This document shows, one piece after another, positions 1 to 17,480 of a stretch of 64,000 nt of DNA. The notes under the pieces were generated by a model. That model was not told the origin of the DNA and searched no databases. It saw nothing but the letters and a program-made list of their open reading frames with translations. Source of the DNA: Raillietiella orientalis (Eukaryota). Position 1 is the stretch's first letter. Each line of letters begins with the position of its first letter. The position numbers and the translations under genes are program-made. Location of the stretch: positions 186,001-250,000 of the forward strand of contig JAYWIR010000043.1 in NCBI GenBank assembly GCA_036172245.1. The letters are read 5' to 3'.

Positions 1-297
1 AGTTACGGAAACCTTGGGATTTTCGCTGCGTTCTCTGGGGGCGTTGCTTTCGCTACGCCTTTAAAAGGCGGCAACGGAGTCACCTTCTTGACAGTCGGGA
101 GATCGCTCCGCTCATGCAGAGTCCGTGAACTTGCTCCGCGGCTCGAAGTATTGTGCGCTTGACAACTTAATCAGTTCATTGTGCTCGTGTGTGCCCGGAA
201 AGGGGAAGTTTTCCAGAAGAAACAAAAAAAAAGAAGCGGCGAGGAGATCGCGGCAAAAGACCTGCAGTGGTCCCGTGCAGCAAGACCAACTGCCAGA

Positions 298-2031
298 ATG
301 CAGGCACCTAGAAGAGGAGTGGAGAGACCGTCGTCTTCCATGGAAGCCTTGGAGGTAACGTGCCGCAACGGCGAGGCGGTGGCAGGCATGCCGAGGATCG
401 CGCCCGCGGCGGGCTTTGCTGCGCCGGCAGAGGCGACGCCGAGGATCGTGCCCGCGGCGGGGAAGGTCGCGCCTGCGGCGGCGATGCTGAGGGTGCCGCC
501 CGCGGCGGTAACGGCGGCAACGTCGAGGATTGCGCCCGCGGCGGTGGCGTCCCAGGCGGGACCCGCGGGCGTCCACGCGGTGCAGGGAGCGACGCCGTCT
601 TGTTTGGCTGCGGCGTCGCAGCCCTTTTGATATGCGTAGGTGGCGGCTGGACAGGCGAGTGTCCACCCACCTCGGAAATTCGGTAAGCCGCTTAGCGGAA
701 AAGTACTAAAAGTGGACGGTCCAATAGTCGAAATAGGCCTCAACGTGAAGCCCATTATCTTCAAGACGGGGCTAATAAAATTTAATAACATCAGGGAGGT
801 CTATTTGTCCCTCGACAAGACGGACATAGACTTTGATCGCATTCAGGCGATCATTCCATCAAACAACGGGTTCACAGTCTTTACAGACTGTGAAAACATT
901 AGAGAGCGATTGATCCAGAATGGGATCAATATACAAGGACGGATGGTTTGTGGTATTGGCGAGATGCCATACACAACCGTCTTTTTAAACGGCATCTCCA
1001 TCCTCACACCGCAACTAGCGGTGTGGAATTACTTGGAGCAGTTTGGGGAAGTTCTGGACCTTGATTTCCAGAACTTCTCTGGAAACATATTTTCTGGCGA
1101 CATGATCGCCAAGATGAAGTTGAGGGAGAGAGCGGTGATCCCTGGATTGGCCGTTATTGACGAACAATCCCAGGGAGTGAATGTGCGTTACCGGCAACAA
1201 CCGGTATTCTGCACCGGGTGCAAGCAGTTCGGCCACAGGGCCGGGGCTTGCCCAACGTGTCGTTGTTTCCGCTGCGGCAAAGTAGGACATCAAGTCCGAA
1301 ACTGCCCGCAGCCGGAGGTGTGCTCCTTCTGCAAGAAACACGGACATGCGAAATGGAGCTGTCCGGAGTTTAAAAACTGCAGAAGGATTCGAGGTCTCTC
1401 TCCCGTGAGAGAGAGAAACATCAAGGAGGCCGAGCAGCCTCAGAAGGCAGGAAGGCAGAAAAAAGTGAAAGAAGCCGTCCCATTGTCGGCGGACGGCTTC
1501 ATAGACGTGGGAAAGAAGGGAAAGAGGAGGATGCTCGTCAAGGAGCAAGGAACTCCTCAAATCCTGGAAGCAGCAGAGCAGGAAGGCGAGAAGATGGAGG
1601 TAGCGCAGGAAGGCGCGAAGGAAGAGAGACAGGAAGCCACTAAAGTGTCGCAGGAAGCTCTGCAGACTACGGAGGAGTTGGCAACACTGGCGGAGGAGAT
1701 CATGGAGGTGCAAAGCGGTCCTCAGCAAGAGAAAATCTTGCAGAAGATCTGCACTGCACAAGAGAACATCAACCAGGTGGTGGAGGTCGCTGAACGCGAG
1801 AAGTTAGAGGAACAGCTTCTCGACGTGAAGGCGAACTTCTGCGCCAAAGTCGAAATAGAGGCGCTATCTCGAAAATTGATCGCGCAGGCGGAACACTCTA
1901 CGGAGGAGGCGGAAATTACCGACCTCACAGGTACGGAGAGTGACGCCGGCAGCGAAAAACCCGCTGCTTCTTCATTGTCTGGAAGAGCACGCTCTCTCAG
2001 ACAGAAGAAGCTCAGGAAGGCCAAAAAATAG
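298..2031 (+). pseudogene. ORF1 (gag-like nucleic-acid-binding protein) of family A copy 1
   Basis: ORFs 181-630 and 640-2031 are in one frame, split by TGA 628-630 and TAG 637-639 (Ser codons in copies 2/3). Knuckles CTGCKQFGHRAGAC, CFRCGKVGHQVRNC and CSFCKKHGHAKWSC at ~1210-1362. Start could be ATG 298 or 340. Confidence 0.88.
385..570 (+). repeat. GC-rich degenerate coding repeat in the ORF1 N-terminus (PRI(A/V)PAA-like units)
   Basis: Recurring gccgaggatcg(c/t)gcccgcggcgg at ~390, ~438, ~485 and ~523. Equivalent tracts at ~5970-6140 and ~11555-11780. Confidence 0.75.
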
Positions 2032-2044
2032 GTCTTCCCCTTTT

Positions 2045-5000
2045 ATGGCCTCTTCCCTATCGATCGCCAGGAGGATAAACATCGCCTCCTGGAACGTAAA
2101 CGGTGTGGTCGACCAGGGAAAAAGAAGAAGGATTGTGCGGACCATCGCACAACAAGACATCGTGTGCCTGCAGGAGACCCACAGGATGGGTCTCGAGATA
2201 AGCCAGCGAATAGAACGGCGATTCAATGGGCAGATGTTCGTCAACGAAGGAGAACGGAACACGAAGGGTGTGGCGGTGCTAATAAAGAACCACTTAGCCC
2301 CCACTATTCTGGATGTGTTCTGTCCCCAACCCGGACGAATCATCGGCGTGCGACTGGCCTGGTCCGCGACTGTTCACCTTATCCTGGTGAACGTGTACGG
2401 GCCGCACAGGCTAAAACATCGTTGTGCGGAGGCGCCGCATGCAACACTCCGGCAAAAGGTCGCCCCTAAGGACGTCGTGATAGTTGCTGGCGATCTCAAC
2501 ATCTTGGATGAGATCATTCATTCGGAAGACGCCAGAGGAAGGACGGCGTATCGACGGCTATCCGAGGAGTTCGGACTGGTCTGGCGAACAGCAAGCCACA
2601 AGCCAATCGATCACGTCCTGCACAGCACCGAACTTGGGAACCGCATCCAGGGGTTTCGCGACACTATGACTACGGTGTCCGATCACCCCCTGGTGCGGTT
2701 TTCCCTAAGAACGGAGAATCCTCGTCGGAGGCAAGGCACCAGGGCGGCGCTCATCAGCATGCCCGCCTGGTTCGAAACCCATCCTGGACATCAGGCTGTC
2801 CTGGAGGCGATTCTGAGGGCAACAACAATCCGAAGAGTTGCCGACTGGGACAGCCTGAAACACAGGATACACCTGTTTGCGAACATGCAGTTCGGGGATA
2901 GGCGCTTGAGGCAAGAGGCGTACCGGGAGCTGAACATCCAAGATCGCTCCCTCTCAAAGTACTTCGATCAGTACGAGAGTCGGTACGTCTTCAATAACAT
3001 AAAAGGGGAAGTCGGCGTGCTGGAGAAGAGAAATCTGGCAACAGATATCTTCTGCATCCAGTACGACGGCCAAAAGCGACAGTCGTCTGAGGACATCGTG
3101 GATGCCTTTCACAGGCATTACACGAAACACTTTAGGCAACAACATCTCTGTCGCTCTAGTCAACAGGCCTTTCTGAGCTACCTCGAGAAGAGGACCGACG
3201 ATCTCCAGCGGAACAGACTGGAGGAGGAATTCTCCGAAGACGAGGTGGAGACTGCGTTTGGTCAACTACGCAAGGACGTGGCAGCGGGCCTTGAAAGCGT
3301 ACCCATCTCTCACTATCAGCGGTACCTGCATGCCTGCTTGCGTTTGTTCTTCCAGTTAACCCTCTGCATCCGCGAAGAAGGAAGATTTTCACAGTCCTTC
3401 TACGAGAGTCGGATAAGATTGTTGCCAAAAGGAGGCGACCTCACGCAGGTTGCTCAATGGAGGCCAATGTCGATCCTGAACTCCGAAGCCAAGTGTTTGG
3501 CGAAGATGTGGTCCAACCGCTTATTCTAGGTCATGTCGAGGCTCATCTCTCCGGTGCAAACATGTGCAGTCCCTGGACGTCACATGTCGAACAATGTCAA
3601 GTGTGCTTAGGCTACCGTGGAACTCAGCCGATACGTCGGCGAGAACCAGGCGCTGGTGTTCACTGACATGGAGAAGGCTCTCGACTCTATCGATCATGGG
3701 ATGCTGCTTAAGGTTCCGGAGAAGCTAGGCCTTCCGGAACTCTTCAGCAACTTTGTGAGGGTGGTACTCCAAAACCAGTACTGCCGAATCAAAATCAACG
3801 GCCAGGAGACGGCAGCAATCCCGATGGAACCAAGAGTCCGGCAGGGCGATTCGCTAAGTCCGATGCTGTTCGTCATCTACATGGAGGCGTTGTCGTCCGT
3901 TATCGAGAAGAGCGGACGACTGCAAGGCATAACAATCGATGGCCAGCGTCTTACCCATCTGGCATACGCTGATGATCTTCTCTTCTCTATCAAGGGAGAG
4001 AGAAATCAACGAGCGTTTCTGGATGTGGTAGACCTGATGGATCAAGACCTGGGTCTAAAGATCAACGCCCAGAAAAGCCAGCTCTTTCCCGTTGGAATTC
4101 TCGATGTCTCCGCTCTAGCGGGGACAGGATTCCGAACGGTGGACAAGGCCAAGTACCTGGGTGTCTACATTGGCGACGTCTCTGCGTCGAAGCTATTGTG
4201 GACCGAGATCCTAGGGAAAGCGGCCAAGGAAGCAGCCAACTACACCCGAACGGACCTTGGAATGAAGCGAAAGGCCAACATATGGAACAAAGTACTCCTT
4301 CCAAAAGTGCTCTTTAAGGCGGCCTCAGCGAGGATGAACAAGGACACCAATAGGGAGTTCGACAAGCTGCAGAGAAAAAAACTGTGGGGCCACTATCGCC
4401 CAAGAGTCCGACTAAAACACCTGTGTCGTTCCAGGGAAGAAGGCGGTTCCGGGATGAAGTCGCTTGGACACTCTATAGAAATCATGGATACGCGACACAT
4501 CCTGGACATTGCCTCTCACTGGGGTGATTGGCCGTATGCGGCACACAGCGCCTTGGCGTTGTTGTTGAACAACTCGAAAGGCCTGATGACTGCGATGCAA
4601 GGCCGAACAGGCGAATGGAAAAAAATCGACCAAACCTGGACGACGAAGAACGGCTGGTGCGAAAGCACAAAACTAAGATCGTGCCGAGAAGTAGGGAACT
4701 CTGGCGTGACGAGTCCATCCTGGTGATCCCTTGGATGCTTCCTGTCCCGCCGGACACGAGAAGCTGGATTTACCAGCGGTCCAGGGTTACCCTTCAACGA
4801 ATCCAAGAGTGGAAACGAGGAGGGTACCTACATCGCACTCGTATACTTAGGTATATAGAGATGATGTTAGGAAGGTTTACCCACATGACTCGCGAAGTGT
4901 GGTTCAACCAGAACGACTTTGCGTGGTCCAGGGTAACCAAAACAAACGTTCGCAGACTAATTTAAGAAGAAGAGCGTGATATCAGTGCCCTCCTGGAAGC

Positions 5001-5562
5001 CGCCGATCGCCATGGGAGTGAACGGATCAACGTGTTAGCGATTGGCACGACACTCTGGAGGAGTGACCTTCAGCCGGGCACCCAGGATGACCTCCTGATG
5101 TTTTATCATGGAGGAATCCAGAGTGGGTTCCGATTGCAGCACTACACCGGAAGAAGGGAAGATCGAGACAGCACAGCATGTGGAGACATCGACACGAGAC
5201 TTCACGTCTTGACGTGTCCCACATTGCTGCATGACTGGCTGATCCTGAAAAGGATCATCGGACTTACGAACAGATCCGTAATGTAGATCCTCGCCGGGAT
5301 GTTTCAGGGGAATGGTAATGTTCCCTGTTACAATCCCATGGTGGGGACGACCATCGCCCTCTTCATCACCGCCATACTTGTGCGGTGGTGGAAAATGAGG
5401 AAAGCCAGGAGAGCCGCACCACCGATGGAGATCCTACAAGGGCTCTTGAAGAGGGAAATTGGCATCAGGAACTGCGGGAAGATCCACGCCTGGACGTACC
5501 GATTCATCCTGAAGAGAATCCAGGACGACGCCCGGGACCATCCGGCTAAAATTTACCCCTGA
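2045..5562 (+). pseudogene. ORF2 (APE endonuclease + reverse transcriptase) of family A copy 1
   Basis: APE motifs SWNVNG, CLQETH, NVYGP, AGDLN, IDH, SDH. RT motifs WRPMSILN, DMEKALD, RQGDSLSP, YADD, KYLGV. Disrupted by TAG 3527, TAG 3608, a 1-nt deletion near 4645, TAA 4963 and TAG 5284. Confidence 0.92.
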
Positions 5563-5881
5563 AAAGCAGAACTCTAGGGCAACCCAAGGACCCCCAAGTG
5601 CAAAATGTTTGTATTGAGTGAATGAGAGTGCGAATGTAAATTTTGTATTCTTATAGAAAAATAAACTTACCCCACCCCTTGTGGGACTTGGGGAAACCTG
5701 CCGAGTCGGCGAACTTGCTCGGCGGCTCAAAGTATTGTGCTCTTGACAAAGGAATTCGTTAATTGTGCTCGTGTGTGCCCGAAGAGGGGAAGTTTTCCAG
5801 ACGAAACTAAAAAAAAGAAGCGGCGAAGAGATCGCGGAAAAAGACCTGCAGTGGTCCCGTGCAGCAAGACCAGCTGCCAGG

Positions 5882-7616
5882 ATGCAGGCACCTAGAAGAG
5901 GAGTGGAGAGACCGTCGTCCCCCATGGAAGCCATGGAGGTAACGTGCGGCAACGGCGAGGCGGTGGCAGGCATGCCGAGGATCGCGCCCGCGGAGGGCTT
6001 TGCTGCGCCGGAGGCGGCGACTCCAAGGATCGTGCCCGCGGCGGGGAAGGTCGCGCCTGCGGCGGCGATGCCGAGGGTGCCGCCCGCGGCGGCAACGGTG
6101 GCGACGTCGAGGGTTGCGCTCGGAGCGGCGGCGTCCCAGGCAGGACCCACGGGCGTCCACGCGGTTCAGGGCGAGACGACATCTTGTTCGGCTGCGGCGA
6201 CGCAGCCCTTTTCCTATGCGTCGGTGGCGGCTCGACAAGTGAGTGTCCACCCACCAAGAAAATTCGGGAAGCCGCTATGCGGTAAAGTCCAAAAGGTGCA
6301 TCGACCAATCGTGGAGTTAGGGCCGAATGTGAAGCCCATCATTTTCAAGACTGGGCTGATCAAGTTCAATAAAATCAGGGAGGTGTATCTGTCCCTCGAT
6401 AAAACGGACATGAATTTTGATCGCATACAGGCGATCATACCAGCAAACAACGGGTTCACAGTCTTCACAGACTGTGAAGAGATTAGAGAGCGATTGATCC
6501 AGAACGGAATTCAATATAGAAGGGAGGATGGTTTGTGGTGTTGGCGAGATGCCATACACAACCGTCTTTCTGAACGGCATCTCCATCCTCACACCGCAAC
6601 TAACAGTGTGGAACATTTTGGAGCAGTATGGGGAAGTTCTGGACCTCGAATTCCAGAACTTCTCTGGAAAAATATTTTCTGGCGACATGATCGCCAAAAT
6701 GAAGTTGAAAGAGGGAGCTGTGATCCCTGGATTAGCCGTTCTTGACGAACAATCCCAGGGAGTGAACGTGCGTTACCGGCAACAGCCGATATTCTGCACC
6801 GGGTGCAAGCAGTTCGGCCACAGGGCCGGCGCTTGCCCAACGTGTCGTTGTTTCCGCTGCGGCAAAGTAGGACATCAAGTCCGAAACTGCCCGCAGCCGG
6901 AGGTGTGCTCCTTCTGCAAGAAACACGGACATGCCAAATGGAGCTGTCCGGAGTTTTCAAACTGCAGAAGGATTCGAGGTCTCTCTCCCGTGAGAGAGAG
7001 AAACACCAAGGAGGCGGAACAGCCTCAGAAGGCTGGAAGGCCGAAGAAGGTGAAAGAAGCCGTCCCGGTATCGGAAGACGGATTCATACAGGTAGGGAAG
7101 AAAGGAAAGAGAAGGATGCTCGTCAAGGAGCAAGAAACCCCTCTTATCCTGGAAGGTGAAGAGCAAGAAAGCGAGAAGATGGAGGTAGCGGAGGAAGGCG
7201 CGGAAGAAGAAAGAGCCGAAGCCACTCCGGTGTCGCAGGAGGCCCTGAAATCTACGGAGGTGTTGGCATCACTGGCTAATGAAGTCCTAGAGGTGCAGAG
7301 CGGTCCCCAGCAAGAGAAAATCTTGCAGAAGATCTGCAATGCACAGGAGAAGGTCAACCAGGTTGTGGAAATCACCGAGCGCGAAAAGCTCGAGGAACAG
7401 CTTCTCGACGTAAAGGCGAACTTCTGCGCCAAGGTCCAGATAGAGACGCCATCTCGAAAACTGATCGAGCGGGCCGAACACTCGACGGAGGAGGCGGAAG
7501 TAACCGACCTCACCGGAACAGAGAGTGACGCCGTCAGCGAGAAGCCCGCTGCCTCTTCATTGTCTGGAAGAGCACGCTCTCTCAGACAGAAGAAGCACAG
7601 GAAGGCCAAGAAATAG
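5882..7616 (+). pseudogene. ORF1 of family A copy 2 (frameshifted)
   Basis: ORFs 5765-6745 and 6528-7616 are joined by a +1 insertion at ~6510 (ggaattcaat vs gggatcaat in copy 1). The three CCHC knuckles are intact. Confidence 0.88.
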
Positions 7617-7629
7617 GTCCTCCCCTTTT

Positions 7630-10600
7630 ATGGCCTCTTCCCTATCGACCGCCAGGAGGCTGAACATCGCCTCCTGGAATGTAAACGGTATGGTCGACCA
7701 GGGAAAAAGAAGAAGGATTGTGCGGACCATCGCACAACAAGACATAGTGTGCCTGCAGGAGACCCACAAGATGGGTCTCGAGATTAGTCAGCAAATGGAA
7801 CGGCGATTCAACGGGCAGATGTTCGTCAGAGAGGGAGAACGAAACACGCAGGGAGTGGCGGTCCTAATCAAGAACAACTTGGCCCCCACTATTCTGGAAG
7901 TGTTCTGTCCCCAACCCGGACGAATCATCGGCGTGCGACTCGCCTGGTCCGCTACTGTTCACCTCATCCTGGTGAACGTGTACGGACCGCACAGGCTAAA
8001 ACATCGTTGTGCGGAGGCGCTGCATGCAGCACTCCGTGAAAAGGTTGCTTCCAAGTACGTCGTGATTGTTGCTGGCGATCTCAACATATTGGATGAGATC
8101 ACTCACTCCGAAGACGCCAGAGGAAGGACGGCGTATCAGCGGTTATCCGACGAGTTCGGACTGGTGTGGCGAACTGCAAGTCACAAGCCGATCGATCACG
8201 TCCTGCACAGCACCGAACTTGGGAATCGCATCCAGGGTTTTCGAGACATTATGACCACGGTGTCCGATCACCCCCTGGTGCGGTTTTCCCTAAGAACGGA
8301 AAATCCTCGGCGGAGGCAAGGCACCAGGGCGGCGCTCATCAGCATGCCCGCCTGGTTCGAAACCCATCCCGGACATCAGGCTGTCCTGGAGACGATTCTG
8401 AAGGAAACAACAATCCGAAGAGTCGCCGACTGGGACAGCCTGAAACACAGGATACACCTGTTTGCGAACATGCAGTTCGGGGATAGGCGCTTGAGGCAAG
8501 AGGCGTACCGGGAGCTGAACATCCAAGATCGCTCCCTCTCAAAGTACTTCGATCAGTCCGAGAGTCGGTACGTCCTCAATAACATAAAAGGGGAAGTCGG
8601 CGTGCTGGAGAAGAGAAATCTGGCAACAGATATCTTCTGCATCCAGTACGACGGCCAACAGCGACAGTCGTCTGAGGACATCGTGGATGCCTTTCACAGG
8701 CATTACACGAAACACTTCAGGCGACAACAGCTGTGTCGCTCTAGTCAACAGGCCTTCTTGAGCTATCTCGAGAAGAGGACCGACGACCTCCAGCGGAACA
8801 GACTCGAGGAGGAGTTCTCCGAAGAAGAGGTGAAGACTGCGTTTGGGCAACTTCGCAAGGACGTGGCAGCGGGCCCTGACAGTGTACCCATCACGCACTA
8901 TCAGCGGTACCTGCACGCCTACCTGCGCTTGTTCCAACAGTTGACCCTCTGCATCCGGGAAGAAGGCAGACTACCTCAGTCCTTCTACGAGAGTCGGATG
9001 AGATTGATGCCGAAAGGAGGCGACTCTACCCAGATCGCCCAATGGAGGCCAATCTCGATCCTGAACTCCGATGCCAAGTGGTTGGCGAAGATCTGGTCCA
9101 ACCGCTTAGGCAAGGTCATGTCGAGGCTGATCTCTCCGGTCCAGACCTGTGCAGTCCCAGGACGACACATGTCGGACAATGTCAAGTGTGCCCAGGCCAC
9201 TGTTGGACTCAGTCGATACGTCGGCGAGAACCTGGTGCTTGTGTTTACTGACATGGAGAAGGCCTTCGACTCCATCGACCACGGGATGCTGCTGTAGGTT
9301 CTGGAGAAGCTAGGGCTTCCGGAACACTTCAGCAACTTCGTGAGGGCGATACTCCAGAACCAGTACTTCCGGATCAAGATCAACGGCCAGGAGACGGCAG
9401 CAATCAGGATGGAACGAGGAGTCCGACAGGGCGACTCGCTAAGTCCGATGCTGTTCGTCATCTATATGGAGGCGTTGTCGTCCTTTATCGAGAAGAGCGG
9501 ACGACTAAGCGGGATTACCATCGATAGCCAGCGTCTTACCCATCTGGTATACGCCGATGATCTACTCTTCTTCATCAAGGGAGAGAAAAATCAGCGTGCG
9601 TTTCTGGATGTGGTGGACCTGATGGAACAGGGCTTGGGCTTAAAAATCAATTCCCAGAAGAGCCAGCTTTTGCCCGTCGGAATACTGGATCTCTCCACTC
9701 TAACGGGTAGTGGATTCCGTACGGTGGACACGGCCAAGTACCTGGGAGTCTACATCGGCGAAGGCTCTGCGTCGAAGCTGCTGTGGAACGGAATCCTGGG
9801 GAAAACGGCCAAGGAAGCAGCCAAGTACACCCGAACGGACCTTGGGATGAAGCGAAAGGCCAACATATGGAACGGAGTACTCCTTCCGAAAGTGCTCTTC
9901 GGGGCGGCCTTCGCGAGGATGAACAAGGACACTACTAGGGAGTTCGACAAGCTGCACAGAAAAACACTCTGGGGCCACTATCGCCCAAGAGTAAGACTGA
10001 AACCCCTGTGTCGTCCCAGGGAAGAAGGCGGTTCCGGGATGAAGTCGCTTGCACATTTCATGGAAATCATGGATACGCGACACATCCTGGACATGGCCAC
10101 TTACTGGGATGACTGGCCGTATGCGGCGCACAGGGCCTACGCGTTGTTGCTTAACAACTCGAAAGGCCTGATGACTGCGCTGCTAGGCCGAGCAGGCAAA
10201 TGGAACAAAATCGACCCAACCTGGACGAGGAAGCAACGGCTGGTGCGAAAGCACAAAATTAAGATCGTGCCGCGAAGCAGGGATCTCTGGCAGGACGAGT
10301 CCATCCTGGTGATCCCTTGGTTGCTTCCTGTCCCGACGGACACGAGAAGCTGGATCTACCAGCGGTCCAGAGTTACCCTACTGCAAATCCAGGAGTGGAG
10401 GCGAGGAGGCTACCTACATCAAACACGTATACTTCGGAATACAGAAATGATGTTAGGAAGGTTTACCCACAATACCCGCAAAGTGTGGTTCAACCACAAC
10501 GACTTCGCATGGTCGAGGGTAACCAGAACAAACCTCCGAAGGTTTATCCAAGAAAACGACCGTGACACCACTGCTCTCCAGGAAGCCACCGAACGCTACG

Positions 10601-11148
10601 GGAGTGAACGGTTCAACCTGTTAGCGATCGGCACGACGCTCTGGAGGAGTGACCTTCCGCCGGGCACCCAGGACGACCTCCTGATGTTTTATCACGGAGG
10701 AATCCAGAGTGGGTCCCGATTGCAGCACTTTACAGGAAGACGGGAAGACCGAGACTGCGCAGCATGTGGAGACGACGACACGAGACTTCACGTCTTGACG
10801 TGTCCCACACTCCTGCAGGACTGGCTGATCCTGAAAAGGATCATAGGACTTACCAACAAGTCCGTTATGGAGATCCTCGCCGGGATGTTTCATGGGGATG
10901 GTAATGTTCCCTGTTACAATCCCATGGTGAGGACGATCATAGCCCTCTTCATCACCGCCATACTTGTGCGGTGGTGGAAAATGAGGAAAGCCAGGAGAGC
11001 CGCACCACCGATGGAGATCCTACAAGGGCTCTTGAAGAGGGAAATCGGCATCAGGAACTGCGGGAAGATCCACGCCTGGACGTACCGATTCATCCTGAAG
11101 AGGATCCAGGACGACGCCCGAGACCATCCAGCTGGAATTCCCCCCTGA
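7630..11148 (+). pseudogene. ORF2 (APE-RT-CCHC, ~1172 codons) of family A copy 2, one premature stop
   Basis: ORFs 7525-9297 and 9340-11148 are in the same frame, separated by a single TAG at 9295-9297 (AAG in copy 1). Motifs DMEKAFDSIDH, GVRQGDSLSP, YADD, KYLGV and C-terminal CAACGDDDTRLHVLTC. Confidence 0.93.
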
Positions 11149-11464
11149 AAAGCAGAACTCTAGTGCAACCCAAGGACCCCCAAGTGCAAAATAATTGTAT
11201 TGAGTGAATGAGAGTGCGAATGTAAATTTTGTATTTTTATAGAAAAATAAACTTACCCCACCCCTTGTGGGACTTGGGGAAACCTGCCGAGTCGGCGAAC
11301 TTGCTTCGCGGCTCAAAGTATGGTGCGCTCGACAACTTAATCAGTTATTTGTGCTCGTGTGTGCCCGGAGAGGGGAAGTTTCCAGACGAAACTACAAAAG
11401 AAGCGCCAAGGAGAACACGGCGGAAGACCTCCATTGGACCCGTGGAGCAAGACCAGCTGCCAGG

Positions 11465-13252
11465 ATGCAGGCACCTAGAAGAGGAGTGGAGAGACCGTCG
11501 TCCCCCATGGAAGCCATGGAGGTAACGTGCGGCAACGGCGAGGCGGTGGCAGGCATGCCGAGGATCGCGCCCGCGGCGGGCTTTGCTGCGCTGGCGGCGG
11601 CCATGCCAAGGGTCGACCACGCGGCGACGACGGCGGAGGTCGTGGCCACGGCGGCGACGCCGAGGATCGTGCCCGCGGCGGGGAAGGTCGCGCTTGCGGC
11701 GGCGATGCCGAGGGTGCCGCCCGCGGCGTAAACGGTGGCGACGTCGAGTGTTGCGCTCGGAGCAGCGGCGTCCCAGGAAGGACCCGCGGGCATCCACGCG
11801 GTTCAGGGTGAGACGCCATCTTGTTCGGCTGCAACGGCGCAGCCCTTTTCGTATGCGTCGGTGGCAGCTGGACAAGCTAGTGTCCACCCACCAAGAAAAT
11901 TCGGGAAGCCGCTATGCGGTAAAGTCCAAAAGGTGGATCGGCCGATCGTGGAGTTAGGGCCGAATGTGAAGCCCATCATTTTCAAGACTGGGCTGATCAA
12001 GTTCAGTAATATCGGGGAGGTGTATCTGTCCCTCGATAAAACGGACATGAATTTTGATCGCATACAGGCCATCATACCAGCAAACAACGGGTTCACAGTC
12101 TTCACAGACTGTGAAAAGATTAGAGAGCGACTGATCCAGAACGGAATTCAATATAGAAGGGAGGATGGTTTGTGGTGTTGGCGAGATGCCGTACACAACC
12201 TTGTTCCTGAACGGCATCTCCGTCCTCACACCGGAACTAACGGTGTGGAACTTTTTGGAGCAATATGGGGAAGTTCTGGACCTTGAATTCCAGAACTTCT
12301 CTGGAAATATATTTTCCGGCGACATGATCGCAAAAATGAAGTTGAAAGAGGGAGCTGTGATCCCTGGATTAGCCGTTCTTGACGAACAATCCCAGGAAGT
12401 GAACGTGCGTTACCGGCAACAACCGATGTTCTGCACCGGGTGCAAGCAGTTCGGCCACAGGGCCGGCGCTTGCCCAACGTGTCGTTGTTTCCGCTGCGGC
12501 AAAGTAGGACATCAAGTCCGAAACTGCCCGCAGCCGGAGGTGTGCTCCTTCTGCAAGAAACACGGACATGCCAAATGGAGCTGTCCGGAGTTTGCACACT
12601 GCAGAAGGATTCGAGGTCTCTCTCCCGTGAGAGAGAGAAACACCAAGGAGGCGGAACAGCCTCAGAAGGCAGGAAGGCCGAAGAAGCTGAAAGAAGCCGT
12701 CCCGGTATCGGAAGACGGCTTCATACAGGTAGGGAAGAAAGGAAAGAGAAGGATGCTCGTCAAGGAGCAAGAAACCCCTCTTATCCTGGAAGGTGAAGAG
12801 CAAGAAAGCGAGAAGATGGAGGTAGCGGAGGAAGGCGCGGAAGAAGAAAGAGCCGAAGCCACTCCGGTGTCGCAGGAGGCCCTGCAATCTACGGAGGTGT
12901 TGGCATCACTGGCTAATGAAGTCCTAGAGGTGCAGAGCGGTCCCCAGCAAGAGAAAATCTTGCAGAAGATCTGCAATGCACAGGAGAAGGTCAACCAGGT
13001 TGTGGAGGTCACCGAGCGCGAAAAGCTAGAGGAACAGCTTCTCGACGTAAACGCAAACTTCTGCGCCAAGTACCAGATAGAGACGCTATCTCATAAACCG
13101 ATCGCGCAGCCGAACACTCGACGGAGGAGGTGGAAGCAACCGACCTCACTGGAACAGAGAGTGACGCCGGCAGCGAGAAGCCCGCTGCTTCTTCATTGTC
13201 TGGAAGAGCACGCTCTCTCAGACAGAAGAAGCTCAGGAAGGCCAAGAAATAG
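11465..13252 (+). pseudogene. ORF1 of family A copy 3
   Basis: TAA 11729-11731, the same +1 frameshift as copy 2 (~12147) and a further frameshift near 13110. CCHC knuckles present; one extra Ala-rich repeat unit. Confidence 0.85.
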
Positions 13253-13265
13253 GTCTTCCCTTTTT

Positions 13266-14255
13266 ATGGCCTCTTCCCTATCGACCGCCAGGAGGCTGAA
13301 CATCGCCTCCTGGAATGTAAGCGGTATGGTCGACCAGGGAAAAAGAAAAAGGATTGTGCGGACCATCGCACAACAAGACATAGTGTGCCTGCAGGAGACT
13401 CACAAGATGGGTCTCGAGATTAGTCAGCAAATGGAACGGCGATTCAACGGGCAGATTTTCTTCAGCGAGTGAGAACGGAACACGCAGGGTGTGGCGGTCC
13501 CAATCAAGAACAACTTGGCCCCCACTATTCTGGAAGTGTTATCCCCAACCCGGACGAATCATCGGCGTGCGACTGGCCTGGTCCGCTACTGTTCACCTCA
13601 TCCTGGTGAACGTGTACGGGCCGCACAGGCTAAAACATCGTTGTGCGGAGGCGCTGCATGCAGCACTCCGTGAAAAGGTTGCTTCCAAGGACGTCGTGAT
13701 TGTTGCTGGCGATCTAAACATATTGGATGAGGTCACTCACTCCGAAGACGCCAGAGGAAGGACGGCGTATCAGCGGTTATCCGACGAGTTCGGACTGGTG
13801 TGGCGAACTGCAAGTCACAAGCCGATCGATCACGTCCTGCACAGCACCGAACTTGGAAATCGCATCCAGGGTTTTCGAGACATTATGACCACGGTGTCCG
13901 ATCACCCCTGGTGCGGTTTTCCCTAAGAACGGAGAATCCTCGGCGGAGGCAAGGCACCAGGGCGGCGCTCATCAGCATGCCCGCCTGGTTCGAAACCCAT
14001 CCCGGACATCAGGCTGTCCTGGAGACGATTCTGAAGGCAACAACAATCCGAAGAGTCGCCGACTGGAACAGCCTGAAGCACAGGATACACCTGTTTGCAA
14101 ACATGAAGTTCGGAGATAGGCGCTTGAGGCAGGAGGCGTACCGGGAGCTGAACATCCAAGATCGCTCACTCTTAAAGTACTTCGATCAGTACGAGAGTCG
14201 GTACGTCTTCAAGAACATAAAAGGGGAAGTCGGCGTGCTGGAGAAGAGAAATCTG
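13266..14255 (+). pseudogene. Truncated ORF2 (APE domain and linker) of family A copy 3
   Basis: SWNVSG, CLQETH, NVYGP, AGDLN, IDH and SDHP motifs spread over ORFs 12165-13472, 13489-13926 and 13800-14348 by frameshifts. Confidence 0.87.
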
Positions 14256-15160
14256 TACGCCAAAGTACTTGAAACACCTGCCCGTGAAGATCCCCAAGCG
14301 GATCCAGTCCGGCCGTCCGGCCCACGCCGTATTTTCAAAAAGCAGTGAAGATGTAGGAACGATTGTGGATTTGTGTCTATTCTCCTAGAGGCCCGTCGCG
14401 CGGCGCAGCAACTCAAAGAAATCTTCGAGCACTGACGCCGGGGTGGACCCTGGGAGCAGGAGCAGAATGTCGTCGGCGTAGACCGACACGGCAGGCGTGC
14501 CGGGACACGAGCTTGGCAGGGTTGTAAGAGTCTCCCTGTATGCCCTCAGCACCACCTCGATGTAGATGCTGAAGAGCAAGGGGCTCATACTGTCACCCTG
14601 CCTTATGCCACGCCGAACCGGCTCGCCGTACACGTGCCGGCCGCTAAAAGAGATGTTTATAAGAGCGAGGCGCCAGCAGGAGCGCAGGTAGGCCCTGAAG
14701 ACGGCCGGGAACCCCAAGCGTTCCAGGAGCTCCAGAAGGAGTTCCTGGTCGACGCAATCGAACGCTTTACGCAGATCGACTGCGACCGCAAGGGCACCGG
14801 GCGCGGCTCTTCCTTGAAGTGCGTCCCCTCCCTGGTTAGAGGAGAATCCATGCTTGTCTTGACCTCCCTGGTCTTCGCTTTGTTGCAACTGCCACCATGT
14901 ACTGGCGAGGAACAGGTTGGCTTCCATGCTTCGTCCCGGAACAGCGTATGTCTGCTCCGAACTCACCACGGATTCCGCCACCCGTCCCAGTCGCTCAGCC
15001 CAAAGGTTGGCAAGCAGCTTCGCATCCGCATTCACTACTGTGATGGGACGCCAGTTGCCTAGGTTGCGATAGTCTCCTTCTTTCAGTAGGAGACGTACTC
15101 AAGCTGACCGGAACGATTTGGGGATGTCCCCTTGTTCTCGGATCAGCATGCAAAACCGAT
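14256..15160 (-). pseudogene. Reverse transcriptase fragment of a second L1/Tx1-like family (B)
   Basis: Minus strand reads GNWRPITVVNADAKLLA...DLRKAFDCVD...GIRQGDSMSPLLF...YADD...KYFGV with in-frame stops. It abuts family A copy 3 tail-to-tail. Confidence 0.88.
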
Positions 15161-15445
15161 GCTAAGGGGGGCCAGCTCCGCCACGAAGCCTTGATAGGAC
15201 ACCGCGGGCAGACCGTCCTCCCCTGGTGCTCCGCGCCATTGTTAGGCCCCGCCACGTATTGCAGATGCGAGCAGTCCCGACATCGGTCCCCGACACGGCG
15301 CCCTGCAACCTGCAAATGGGTGCAGGGTGGCCACACCTGGGAGGAGAAGTGAGGACAGAGATCGGCAGCATTCACCGCCGGTTCTGAGAATAGGAACGGT
15401 TAGACTGCATAGCCCTGTCCCCGCCCTCCCACCCAATTTCTTTAT

Positions 15446-16084
15446 TTATTGTCCCATCCCCTCCCGTTCCGAACTCTCAGTGTGCCCGTCCTGCGTTCCG
15501 GGGAATCTACTCTCCATTTTCTGTTCCCCTTGCCTGGATACGCAGTTCCCAGTTGATATTACGAATAAACGTCTCTGCGCAACCGGGTAATAAACGATAA
15601 CGCTGCATTCTTTAATTTGCTCGCTTCCCTGCTGTTTTTTCTGGCGGTACGCGAGCTTTTTGTCCATCCTCCTCTCCTTCTTTGATTTTTTGGCAGTAGC
15701 CACATGCACCCCATGCTCCTGACCGGCTCCCTCGACTTGTTGGGCATGTTTGCACATGACCTCAACGTACTGAATCCCGCTGCAGATGGTCATAGCGCTG
15801 AGCTCCTCTTTCACATCGAGAGCCCGCATCCCCTTCGAAAAGGCGCGCCCGCTCTCTAAAGAATATAGATTGCCTACCTTGTAGAACAATGAGGGGTTAT
15901 ACCCCTCCTCCACATAGGTGGACAATTTCACCGTGGCTGCAGGCGATGGCGCCGACACAACGGCGCTCCACGCCCGCGCTGCAGCGGGGACCGATTCTGT
16001 GGGGGCGGATGCCTCCACCTCCATCGCCTCTGGGGGCGGCGTTGCCGCTGCCCCCTGTCCATCCCTGGTGGTCCCGTCAGGCAT
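15446..16084 (-). pseudogene. Probable ORF1 fragment of family B
   Basis: MPDGTT...PPPEAMEVEA...ARAWSAVVSAP resembles the family A ORF1 start (EAMEV...SYASVAA), with a Lys/Arg-rich tail. Same strand as and upstream of the family B RT; a possible knuckle remnant (RCGHPAPIC) at ~15335-15310. Confidence 0.55.
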
Positions 16085-16175
16085 CGCTGCCTGATCGACC
16101 ACCGAACCACACGACGCTTGCACTAGGGGAGAGTTCCTGGCACGAAGAGCACCGAGAAAACACGTCCGCCCTCGA

Positions 16176-17480
16176 GCGCATAAGGCGTTCGGCTGCGTCG
16201 ACCAGGAACTCCTTTTGGAGCTCCTGGAACGCATGGGTCTCCCGGTCGTGCTCCAGTCCTATCTGCACTCCTGCTGGCGCAGCGCCATAATAAATATTGG
16301 TTTCAGCAGCCGGCACGTGTACGGCGTGCAAGTGCGCCGCGGCATCTGGCAGGGTGACAGCCTGAGCCCCTTGCTCTTCAGCATCTACTTCGAGTTGGTG
16401 CTGAGGGCATACAGGGTTACTCTGGCAACCCTGGCGAGCTCGTACGCCGGCACGCCTGCCGTGTCGGCCTATGCAGACGATCTTCTTATGCTGCTTTCCG
16501 GGTCAACCCCGGCGAGTGCGCTCGAGATCTTCTTCGAGTTGCTGCGCCGCGGGACGGGCCTCGAGGTAAACAGGACGAAATCGGGGTTACTATTCGCGGA
16601 CTCGACGCGGGCCGGACGGTCGGACTGGATCCGCTTGCGGATCCTCACAGGCAGGTACATGAAGTACCTTGGCGTTCCTTCGGGGGCTTCTGCGCTGCAG
16701 AAGCCTGGTCCGACCGTCTCCAAAAGGTGGAGTTGGAGATCGGCCCTTTCCGGGACGGAACGTTTTACTTGCAGGAACGGGCCGCGGTGTGGAACGCTTT
16801 CGCGGCCCCCCTCCTTCGCCCCCTAATTTTTGTGTGCCGAACACCACCACAAATAAGGACACGGACAAGGGGCCTCATACGGAAAGCCCTCTGGCGCAAC
16901 CGGAGGCCCCGCGTGCGGCTCAAAGACTTGTGCGCTCCACGCAGGGACGGTGGACTTGGTCACCTGACGTTGGAGCGCATGGAGCGACAGCTCCAATTAC
17001 GGAAACTTGCCCTTGTGGCAAAGTATTGGACCGCACCCTGGTGTGCACCCACAAGACTCCTCGCTCACAGGGCAAGCGGCTGCCAAGGATTGACCTCAAT
17101 CCTAGTAGCCAACGACCGCAGCCTGAACCATTGTGGGTTTCAGCTGCGGGATTTGGTTGCCCTGTTGAGAGACAATCCGTGGATCTCCTGCATCCCTGCG
17201 GACTGGACTACCTGGCTCCAGGAGTCGGCTTCCGCATGGGCCAAAATCAACGGCTCCAGGGACGAGGACTTCTCCTGCCTCCGTAGAGGCAAGCACGCTG
17301 GTCAGCCACTGCAGGAGATCGTCCGCAGCCCACGGAAACTTCTAGAGGCCTCCTTCACCCCCCTTGCCCCGTGCTGCCCTCCCTTAGGGAAGTTCGGAAC
17401 AGCCAGCATGAGGCATCGTGAGAAGTGTCCTGCCTCATCGGAGGCAGGAAAAAACTATTGAAGGCGTGGACGTCAAGGGA
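16176..17480 (+). pseudogene. Second RT fragment of family B, opposite orientation
   Basis: KAFGCVDQELL...GIWQGDSLSPLLF...YADD...KYLGV, then after a frameshift RPRVRLKDLCAPRRDGGLG (family A: RPRVRLKPLCRPREEGGSG). GC drops after ~17480. Confidence 0.87.

Follow-up and report, generated by a model that had tools for sequence, protein, structure and literature searches.

A 64,000-nucleotide stretch of the genome of Raillietiella orientalis (GenBank assembly GCA_036172245.1, contig JAYWIR010000043.1, positions 186,001 to 250,000 of the forward strand; hereafter the window) contains a genuine head-to-tail, spacer-less array of at least three copies of one 5.6-kb long interspersed nuclear element (LINE) family. 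Given that each visible joint runs from an exact 3' end into a full-length 5' end, that the copies stem from diverged, selected lineages, and that decay is unequal, with the middle copy apparently the youngest, we suggest that the array arose by an end-to-end process linked to retrotransposition. The more specific proposal, that it was built by repeated retrotransposition homing on the family's own terminus, has in our estimation about an even chance of being right. The parts of the array are as follows.

115-5698, plus strand: first copy (c1); open reading frame 1 (ORF1) from the ATG at 298 to the stop at 2029-2031, ORF2 from the ATG at 2045 to the stop at 5560-5562, 3' untranslated region (3' UTR) at 5563-5698; dead, judging by its reading frames.
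5686-5719, plus strand: joint between c1 and c2, ACTTGGGGAAACC running directly into TGCCGAGTCGGCGAACTTGCT.
5699-11284, plus strand: second copy (c2), the least damaged; ORF1 at 5882-7616, ORF2 from the ATG at 7630 to the stop at 11146-11148.
About 7669-8271 and about 9013-9753, plus strand: endonuclease and reverse transcriptase (RT) domains of c2, respectively, as predicted with Pfam.
11149-11284, plus strand: 3' UTR of c2, with AATAAA at 11246 and a stable predicted fold, ending in ...GGGGAAACC.
11272-11305, plus strand: joint between c2 and c3, with the same sequence as the joint between c1 and c2.
11285-14255, plus strand: third copy (c3), the 5' 2.97 kb of the unit; ORF1 from the ATG at 11465 to the stop at 13250-13252, ORF2 from the ATG at 13266 to the break.

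The array had been noticed in an earlier note made from the sequence alone, which described three same-orientation copies without spacer and identical junctions between them. Both observations were confirmed. When c2 was compared with the window by blastn, exactly three matches were obtained, collinear and on the plus strand, namely c2 itself, c1 (89.8% identity over 5586 bases) and c3 (93.7%, spanning c2 positions 1-2924 only), and direct-repeat families in the window have a spacing of 5583-5637, that is, a period of about 5.6 kb. The 34-base joint is present twice with no mismatch (34/34), and none of 100 shuffles gave two matches. Both visible joints fall on one identical full-length 5' base, and both visible 3' ends (2/2) run into the same stretch of at least 21 bases, which forms the 5' end of the next copy. 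Poly(A), spacer and recognisable host DNA are all absent between the copies at both joints. With three collinear copies in one orientation, of diverged lineages and unequally decayed, the array can be regarded as self-nesting, and the copies abut without interrupting each other. Beyond the array, neither a further copy (blastn with c2) nor, in the remaining 50 kb, a solo target was found in the window. We also consulted run X1, the one public run that contains the sequence, available as Logan contigs (share 0.33, short contigs); none of its listed contigs bridges a joint with at least 31 bases on both sides, so that the order of the array rests on the assembly. An assembly duplication artefact is unlikely, because the copies differ by 6-10%.

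The unit is a LINE with ORF1, ORF2 and a structured 3' UTR. In c2, ORF1 (ATG at 5882, stop at 7614-7616) matches Pfam zf-CCHC (E 1.4e-4), and its CCHC knuckles match solved retroviral nucleocapsid and Lin28 chains over at least two knuckle lengths; 13 bases separate its stop from the ATG of ORF2 at 7630. ORF2 matches Exo_endo_phos (E 9.4e-17) followed by RVT_1 (E 7e-10 and 1.3e-16). Of the solved proteins, human LINE-1 ORF2p is closest to it (E 2.7e-29 for the N-terminal half and 9e-17 to 5e-16 for the RT half) and R2 proteins score more weakly (E 3e-8 to 1.7e-12), a ranking of RT affinity that compares solved structures only. By these predicted domains the family is an apurinic/apyrimidinic (AP) endonuclease (APE)-type LINE of the L1 superclade, with CCHC knuckles in ORF1 and an AP-endonuclease and an RT in ORF2. 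The label 'Tx1-like', which the family had been given at first sight, is supported to this level only, by the Pfam and LINE-1 ORF2p matches.

A protein search with the RT half returned 49 hits, of which one bears the automatic name 'Transposon TX1'. The relatives are at most 36% identical, and the best match has 31% identity and spans 36% of the query; the top-scoring database proteins are L1/Tx1-like, 22-36% identical and mostly unnamed. The nearest Atlas clusters are generic ones carrying RVT_1 and zf-RVT; Pfam found no zf-RVT in the C-terminal 382 residues of ORF2. The search with ORF1 gave no hit at near or shorter lengths, and neither protein search turned up another copy of the family. 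Because the best match of the RT half is only 31% identical and ORF1 has no hit, the family is, as far as protein searches can tell, poorly represented in public protein data, and we regard it as a previously unrepresented LINE.

The two ends of the unit have distinct characteristics. The 3' UTR is 136 bases long, with AATAAA 33 bases before its end, and is predicted to fold with a minimum free energy of -33.6 kcal/mol (z -3.3), a stability that none of 200 shuffles attained; c1 and c2 do not differ in its last 48 bases. A poly(A) or simple-repeat tail was not seen, in that both complete copies end in ...GGGGAAACC with the next copy directly after. Such an A-tail-free 3' end is typical of stringent, often site-specific LINEs, unlike L1 proper. 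At the other end, an 11-base palindrome, GCCGAGTCGGC, lies within the first bases; c2 and c3 have it intact, whereas c1 has a degenerate version.

Several further observations concern the element as a whole. Imperfect tandem repeats (periods of 48, 21/36 and 27 bases) occur in the N-terminal part of ORF1 at 390-508, 6025-6129 and 11622-11681; they encode Ala/Pro-rich PRI(A/V)PAAG-like units and have undergone a 54-base expansion in c3. A single-sequence structure prediction of ORF1 residues 1-260 was unusable (predicted local distance difference test score, pLDDT, 31). The array (1-16000) has a GC content of 54-56% and an observed/expected CpG ratio of 0.90-1.00, so that the elements are without sign of CpG decay, and the corresponding values at 20000-64000 of the window are 33-47% and 0.51-0.87. 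In metagenome scans, the 24-base 3' terminus had no hit and the 21-base 5' motif had one exact match (L001, 1501-1521, in a contig of 64% GC); we rejected this match, of 22-23 bases, as chance, the contig being otherwise without similarity to the element. A scan of 1-400 for bacterial-type promoters and terminators returned nothing and is not relevant to a eukaryotic element.

Next, we compared the coding sequences of the copies. The many synonymous changes that the earlier note had reported between c1 and c2 are real: in four coding segments, the differences at codon positions 1/2/3 number 17/13/43, 31/20/68, 25/20/91 and 46/49/108. In total, c1 and c2 differ by 567 substitutions and only two one-base indels. 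For the same four segments, the Nei-Gojobori method gave a synonymous divergence (dS) of 0.25-0.34 and a nonsynonymous divergence (dN) of 0.04-0.08; their ratio omega, the quantity that the note had proposed to compute, is 0.18-0.30. The summed ratio of nonsynonymous to synonymous differences per site (pN/pS) is 0.26 between c1 and c2 (Fisher P 2e-57) and 0.43 between c2 and c3 (Fisher P 5e-5), the latter pair having a dS of 0.06-0.08. When c1 was used as the outgroup, 13 of the 25 private changes of c2 (P 0.002) and 20 of the 52 of c3 (P 0.011) were synonymous, against a neutral share of 0.23. Given that both the private changes and pN/pS are biased towards synonymous change, most of the divergence arose in functional, selected lineages, and the copies come from separate source lineages. 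Together with the ratio of 2 indels to 567 substitutions, pN/pS values of 0.26-0.43 exclude a simple DNA duplication followed by neutral decay.

The contigs of run X1 agree with a reading of separate lineages. There are 311 of them on the first 17.5 kb, falling into identity classes of 42 (at least 99%), 68, 79 and 122 (below 90%), evidence of many diverged paralogues in the organism; many of the contigs switch between c1-, c2- and c3-like sequence. Runs X2 and X3 contain next to nothing of this sequence, and no RNA run is listed as containing it. A related sign of exchange is found within the array, where c1 and c2 are nearly identical at c2 8310-8660 (c1 2725-3075), sharing uninterrupted stretches of 134, 84 and 60 bases (permutation P 0.0002) and two c1 private sites in place of the approximately 17 expected. 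The block can be either a gene-conversion or recombination tract or a region of nucleotide-level constraint, and we consider, from the sequences compared here, that exchange between copies or lineages does occur. We also tried an unequal crossover between c3 and c1 as the origin of c2 and rejected it; c2 is 91-99% like c3 in its 5' half, but in the 3' half its identity to c1 is no more than 86-88%.

All three copies carry stops or frameshifts. In c1 there are premature stops at 628, 637, 3527, 3608, 4963 and 5284 and a 1-base deletion near 4648; c2 has a premature TAG at 9295 in ORF2 and a +1 frameshift near 6510 in ORF1; and c3 has this same frameshift, stops at 11729 and 13470, three more frameshifting indels, the 54-base insertion and its truncation. 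Relative to c2, the indels of c3 number six, the 54-base insertion included. An X1 contig covering 551-899 has neither of the early c1 stops, so that those at 628 and 637 are private to c1. Judging by these lesions, all three copies are dead and, because all are broken, they are not currently under selection. The initial description of the copies as separate lineages under purifying selection, as opposed to one recent duplication, therefore stands for their past divergence (pN/pS 0.26 and 0.43, with two indels) and has to be corrected for their present state.

The lesions also bear on the order of insertion. With c1 as the outgroup, c3 has more private substitutions than c2 (74 versus 47, P 0.018) and more private indels (6 versus 0, P 0.016), and c1 has more private lesions than c2 (7 versus 1, P 0.035). 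Since c3 is more decayed than c2 and c1 carries more lesions than c2, the middle copy looks the youngest by these counts. Such an order is compatible with insertion into an internal joint, but not with growth at one end only.

The +1 frameshift common to c2 (6495-6552) and c3 (12132-12189) consists of ATTC versus ATC in c1 (911-967). The two copies are identical over 58 bases around it, and an in-frame ATG lies 15 bases downstream, at 6528. The frameshift splits ORF1 into an N-terminal part and a knuckle-bearing part, both of which have a pN/pS of approximately 0.4 between c2 and c3 and are thus still synonymous-biased despite the shared lesion. It may be that a split ORF1 was tolerated, that the lineage was mobilised in trans, or that a short conversion tract spread the frameshift.

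We then analyzed the boundaries of the array, where four further features are found.

1-13, plus strand: possible 3' terminus of an upstream 'copy 0', AGTTACGGAAACC, compared with the element end ACTTGGGGAAACC.
14-114, plus strand: 101-base segment left of c1, without alignment to the element 3' end.
14256-16258, minus strand: fragment of a second LINE family (family B), cut in its RT, which abuts the broken end of c3 and forms the right limit of the array.
16095-17461, plus strand: second family-B RT fragment, with tblastn matches at 16179-16592 and 16685-17110 and a Pfam RVT_1 match (E 7.6e-11).

On the left, homology of c1 to the other copies begins at base 115. The earlier note had placed unrelated sequence upstream of about 113; the boundary is at 115, and the adjoining segment does fail to align with the element 3' end. 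This segment, 14-114, has no relative elsewhere in the window and no Rfam or tRNA match, and could represent a 5' leader of c1 (lineage-specific or transduced) or else a host flank or target. To its left, window 1-13 matches the element 3' terminus at 10 of 13 bases, the last seven exactly (7/7); matches of this quality (three mismatches or fewer) are expected by chance about 18 times per window on both strands. The end of the match lies 2-3 bases away from base 16, the position at which an X1 contig ceases to follow the window. A copy 0 ending at base 13, of which only 13 bases would be visible at the start of the window, is suggestive only. If it does end there, then c1 has a leader of 101 bases that is absent from c2 and c3, and if copy 0 is real, then the constant partner at the joints would be the 3' terminus or the RNA ends, and not the TGCCGAG 5' end.

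The X1 contig just mentioned is 519 bases long, carries bases 16-114 fused to a related 5' end, and departs from the window to the left of base 16; 114 of its bases are unplaced. Compared with window 16-419, it has one difference in 99 flank bases and 10 in 305 element bases, and at least eight of these 11 differences shift c1 towards the c2 state. Possible identities for it are an allele, the locus from which a 5' leader was transduced, or a second target that is occupied.

On the right, the earlier note's account needs a correction for c3. This copy is cut at its 3' side, at window position 14255, which corresponds to c2 position 8622 and lies between the endonuclease and RT domains; this is unlike normal LINE truncation. 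The adjoining family-B fragment is matched by residues 478-751 of the array ORF2 at 15161-14250 (tblastn, 32% identity) and has a Pfam RVT_1 match on the minus strand at 14385-15098 (E 1e-21). Because c3 and this fragment are both cut at the same point, the latter inside its RT domain, the array seems to end on the right in a scar of deletion or rearrangement and not at a natural end. The two family-B fragments, whose RT is about 32% identical to that of the array element, lie in opposite orientations (14256-17461) in a transposon-rich patch. We considered an inversion or twin-priming origin for them and rejected it, because opposite-strand X1 joints are explained more simply as intact paralogues matching two partial copies.

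How might such an array have been built? We propose separate retrotranspositions from diverged, selected source lineages, in each of which the new copy would be placed exactly end to end with a resident copy. The endonuclease/RT complex would nick at the end of the resident copy and prime reverse transcription there. The terminus that is recognised could be the 5' end, TGCCGAGTCGG, as the earlier note proposed, or the 3' end, ...GGGGAAACC, which we slightly prefer. That note had the element inserting at a fixed position in its own 5' end; the basis for this is the two joints, and the boundary left of c1 is different. On our proposal, c2 would have been inserted last, into an older joint between c1 and c3, the right part of the array would later have been lost by deletion, and all copies would then have decayed. 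The family's own copies would thus serve as a safe landing site.

Several points weigh against such homing. The visible joints number only two, and common descent, not mechanism, could account for their identity. The tests of age are weak (P 0.016-0.035), and lesion counts may mirror defective source RNAs, not age. The shared frameshift points to a common defective ancestor of c2 and c3, which fits DNA duplication, or dead templates mobilised in trans, better than two autonomous insertions. In the 519-base X1 contig, a TGCCGAGTCGG-type 5' end is preceded by the 16-114 segment and not by an element 3' end, so that occupation of 5' ends of this type is not universal. A further X1 contig consists of a c2-like 3' end, 14 bases of the 5' end and then 292 unplaced bases. 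Moreover, the remainder of the 64-kb window lacks a further copy or solo target.

We also considered the possibility that the array is a concatemer made in one event, in which the RT, on reaching the 5' end of its template during target-primed reverse transcription, switches to the 3' end of a second family RNA, or copies a read-through multimer RNA. Exact, full-length 5'-to-3' joints without spacer, A tail or host DNA are compatible with this, and copies of different sublineages would be expected if different co-expressed RNAs were copied. In addition, if bases 1-13 are the end of another copy, then that joint is set by the longer RNA of c1, which includes the 101-base leader, rather than by a fixed site in DNA. 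However, a concatemer predicts copies of equal age, which conflicts with the excess of private changes in c3 over c2 (P 0.018 and 0.016) and of lesions in c1 over c2 (P 0.035), and this conflict is avoided only if decayed copies served as templates. To our knowledge, template jumping to full-length partners three times running is undescribed for an L1-type element in a genome. We regard this origin as unlikely.

Alternatively, the element may insert at a specific host sequence whose target-site duplication recreates the target, so that TGCCGAGTCGGCGA... would be duplicated target. The period would then be element plus target, which with three copies is indistinguishable from an element 5' end. 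It is consistent with this that c1 starts with a degenerate version of the motif beside non-element DNA, and that an X1 contig has a c2-like 3' end, 14 motif bases and then non-array sequence. There are also precedents in the literature: this explanation is given for R1 tandems with identical 33-nt ribosomal DNA (rDNA) duplications (PMC5932611), and Utopia-1_NVit is occasionally found in tandem in U2 genes (PMC4640811). However, in Rfam and tRNA searches neither the array nor its immediate surroundings contained a known multicopy RNA gene: the 64 kb gave no match at the Rfam gathering threshold and none in the tRNA search, and a permissive Rfam scan of 1-420 gave only two chance-level hits (E 0.12 and 0.67). 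There is no solo target in the remaining 50 kb, and a target anchored in the flank predicts a monotonic order of ages, whereas the middle copy looks the youngest. A regenerated host target therefore seems to us rather improbable, and somewhat more so than a concatemer.

Amplification at the DNA level, that is, unequal crossing-over or slippage of a single insertion or dimer, with gene conversion giving mosaic similarity, would account for the identical joints and for the frameshift shared by c2 and c3, the closest pair (93.7%); the nearly identical block at 8310-8660 (134-base run, P 0.0002) implies that exchange occurs. Against this, the divergence is synonymous-biased (pN/pS 0.26 and 0.43) with two indels to 567 substitutions, unlike the neutral decay of dead DNA, the similarity of c2 to c3 in its 5' half (91-99%) and to c1 in its 3' half (86-88%) is not that of a simple c3/c1 crossover product, and the first duplication would need break points exactly at the element ends. 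For c1 versus c2 this explanation is largely contradicted, and we judge it very unlikely for the array as a whole. Telomere-type terminal addition, in which successive copies are added to a chromosome end with their 3' ends towards the centromere, is the least probable origin of all: although the copies lie head to tail in one orientation with the rightmost the most decayed, a layout known from HeT-A/TART and GilM/GilT and with Tx1-1_ACar listed as telomere-associated in PMC10088271, none of nine telomere-type motifs occurs in the window as two or more tandem units on either strand, both joints fall at the same full-length 5' base where erosion gives variable 5' ends (PMC5932611), and c1 is not the least decayed copy.

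Comparison with known systems places the proposed homing on the family's own terminus among behaviours of a known kind. The array is like the target-specific LINEs of the Tx1 clade (Tx1L, Keno, Mutsu) in that its ORF2 has APE and RT, its ORF1 has zinc knuckles, and its 3' joints are precise and lack a long A tail. The target of Tx1L is another transposon. Unlike those Tx1-clade elements that have host multicopy targets (U2, 5S, microsatellites), no such target is seen at the array. The clade is one of three groups that together account for most target-specific non-LTR (non-long terminal repeat) families (PMC4640811).

It has previously been reported that tandems of non-LTR elements arise by repeated insertion at the same site, as in the R1 arrays and tail-to-internal dimers of Drosophila (McGurk and Barbash 2018; PMC5932611). 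In the same source, R1 tandems have a 33-nt rDNA target duplication between copies, and in the majority of non-LTR dimers it is a 5'-truncated copy that follows the 3' end. The joints described here differ from both in having no recognisable host spacer and untruncated 5' ends; a short duplicated target could nevertheless hide in the first 5' bases, given that there are three copies only. Telomeric LINE arrays (HeT-A/TART/TAHRE, and GilM/GilT of Giardia) are likewise head to tail in one orientation and built by successive retrotranspositions (PMC10088271 and PMC5932611). However, their A tails at joints, their variable 5' ends (in Drosophila) and their location at chromosome ends are not seen here. 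The arrays of Cnl1, a LINE-1-like element of Cryptococcus, are nested, mostly 5'-truncated and subtelomeric beside telomere repeats, whereas the copies here stand end to end, uninterrupted, with full-length 5' joints and no telomere repeat in the window, a comparison made by description only.

R2 proteins, in turn, jump from full-length cDNA to further templates, and head-to-tail tandems are formed in cells; the exact head-to-tail joints between successive templates resemble those of the array (PMC11371274). R2 template jumping has been shown in vitro and with transgenes, and not as a source of natural multi-lineage L1-type arrays. Thus, there are already published examples from flies, fungi and protists of LINE tandem arrays built through repeated insertion; the family is new, and its behaviour is of a known kind. 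What is distinctive here is the spacer-less, untruncated and A-tail-free joints, together with stacked sublineages with a dS of approximately 0.3. We found no description of this family or layout in open-access text, a coverage that cannot show absence.

The fullest form of our proposal is a self-homing LINE that recognises its 3' end, ...CTTGGGGAAACC, or its palindromic 5' end, GCCGAGTCGGC, whose full-length copies enter even existing joints, so that competing sublineages stack in private safe-harbour arrays without a host target gene, poly(A) or spacer. We put this forward tentatively, as a possibility that we would, on balance, lean against. Its present scope is one locus of dead copies. 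As the multi-lineage array shows, more than one sublineage was active at the same time, with exchange of sequence between them. If the proposal is true, the family would offer an APE/RT pair that is sequence-specific for a short, defined target, of interest for targeted insertion tools, and it would show how a LINE can spare its host without relying on a host multicopy gene.

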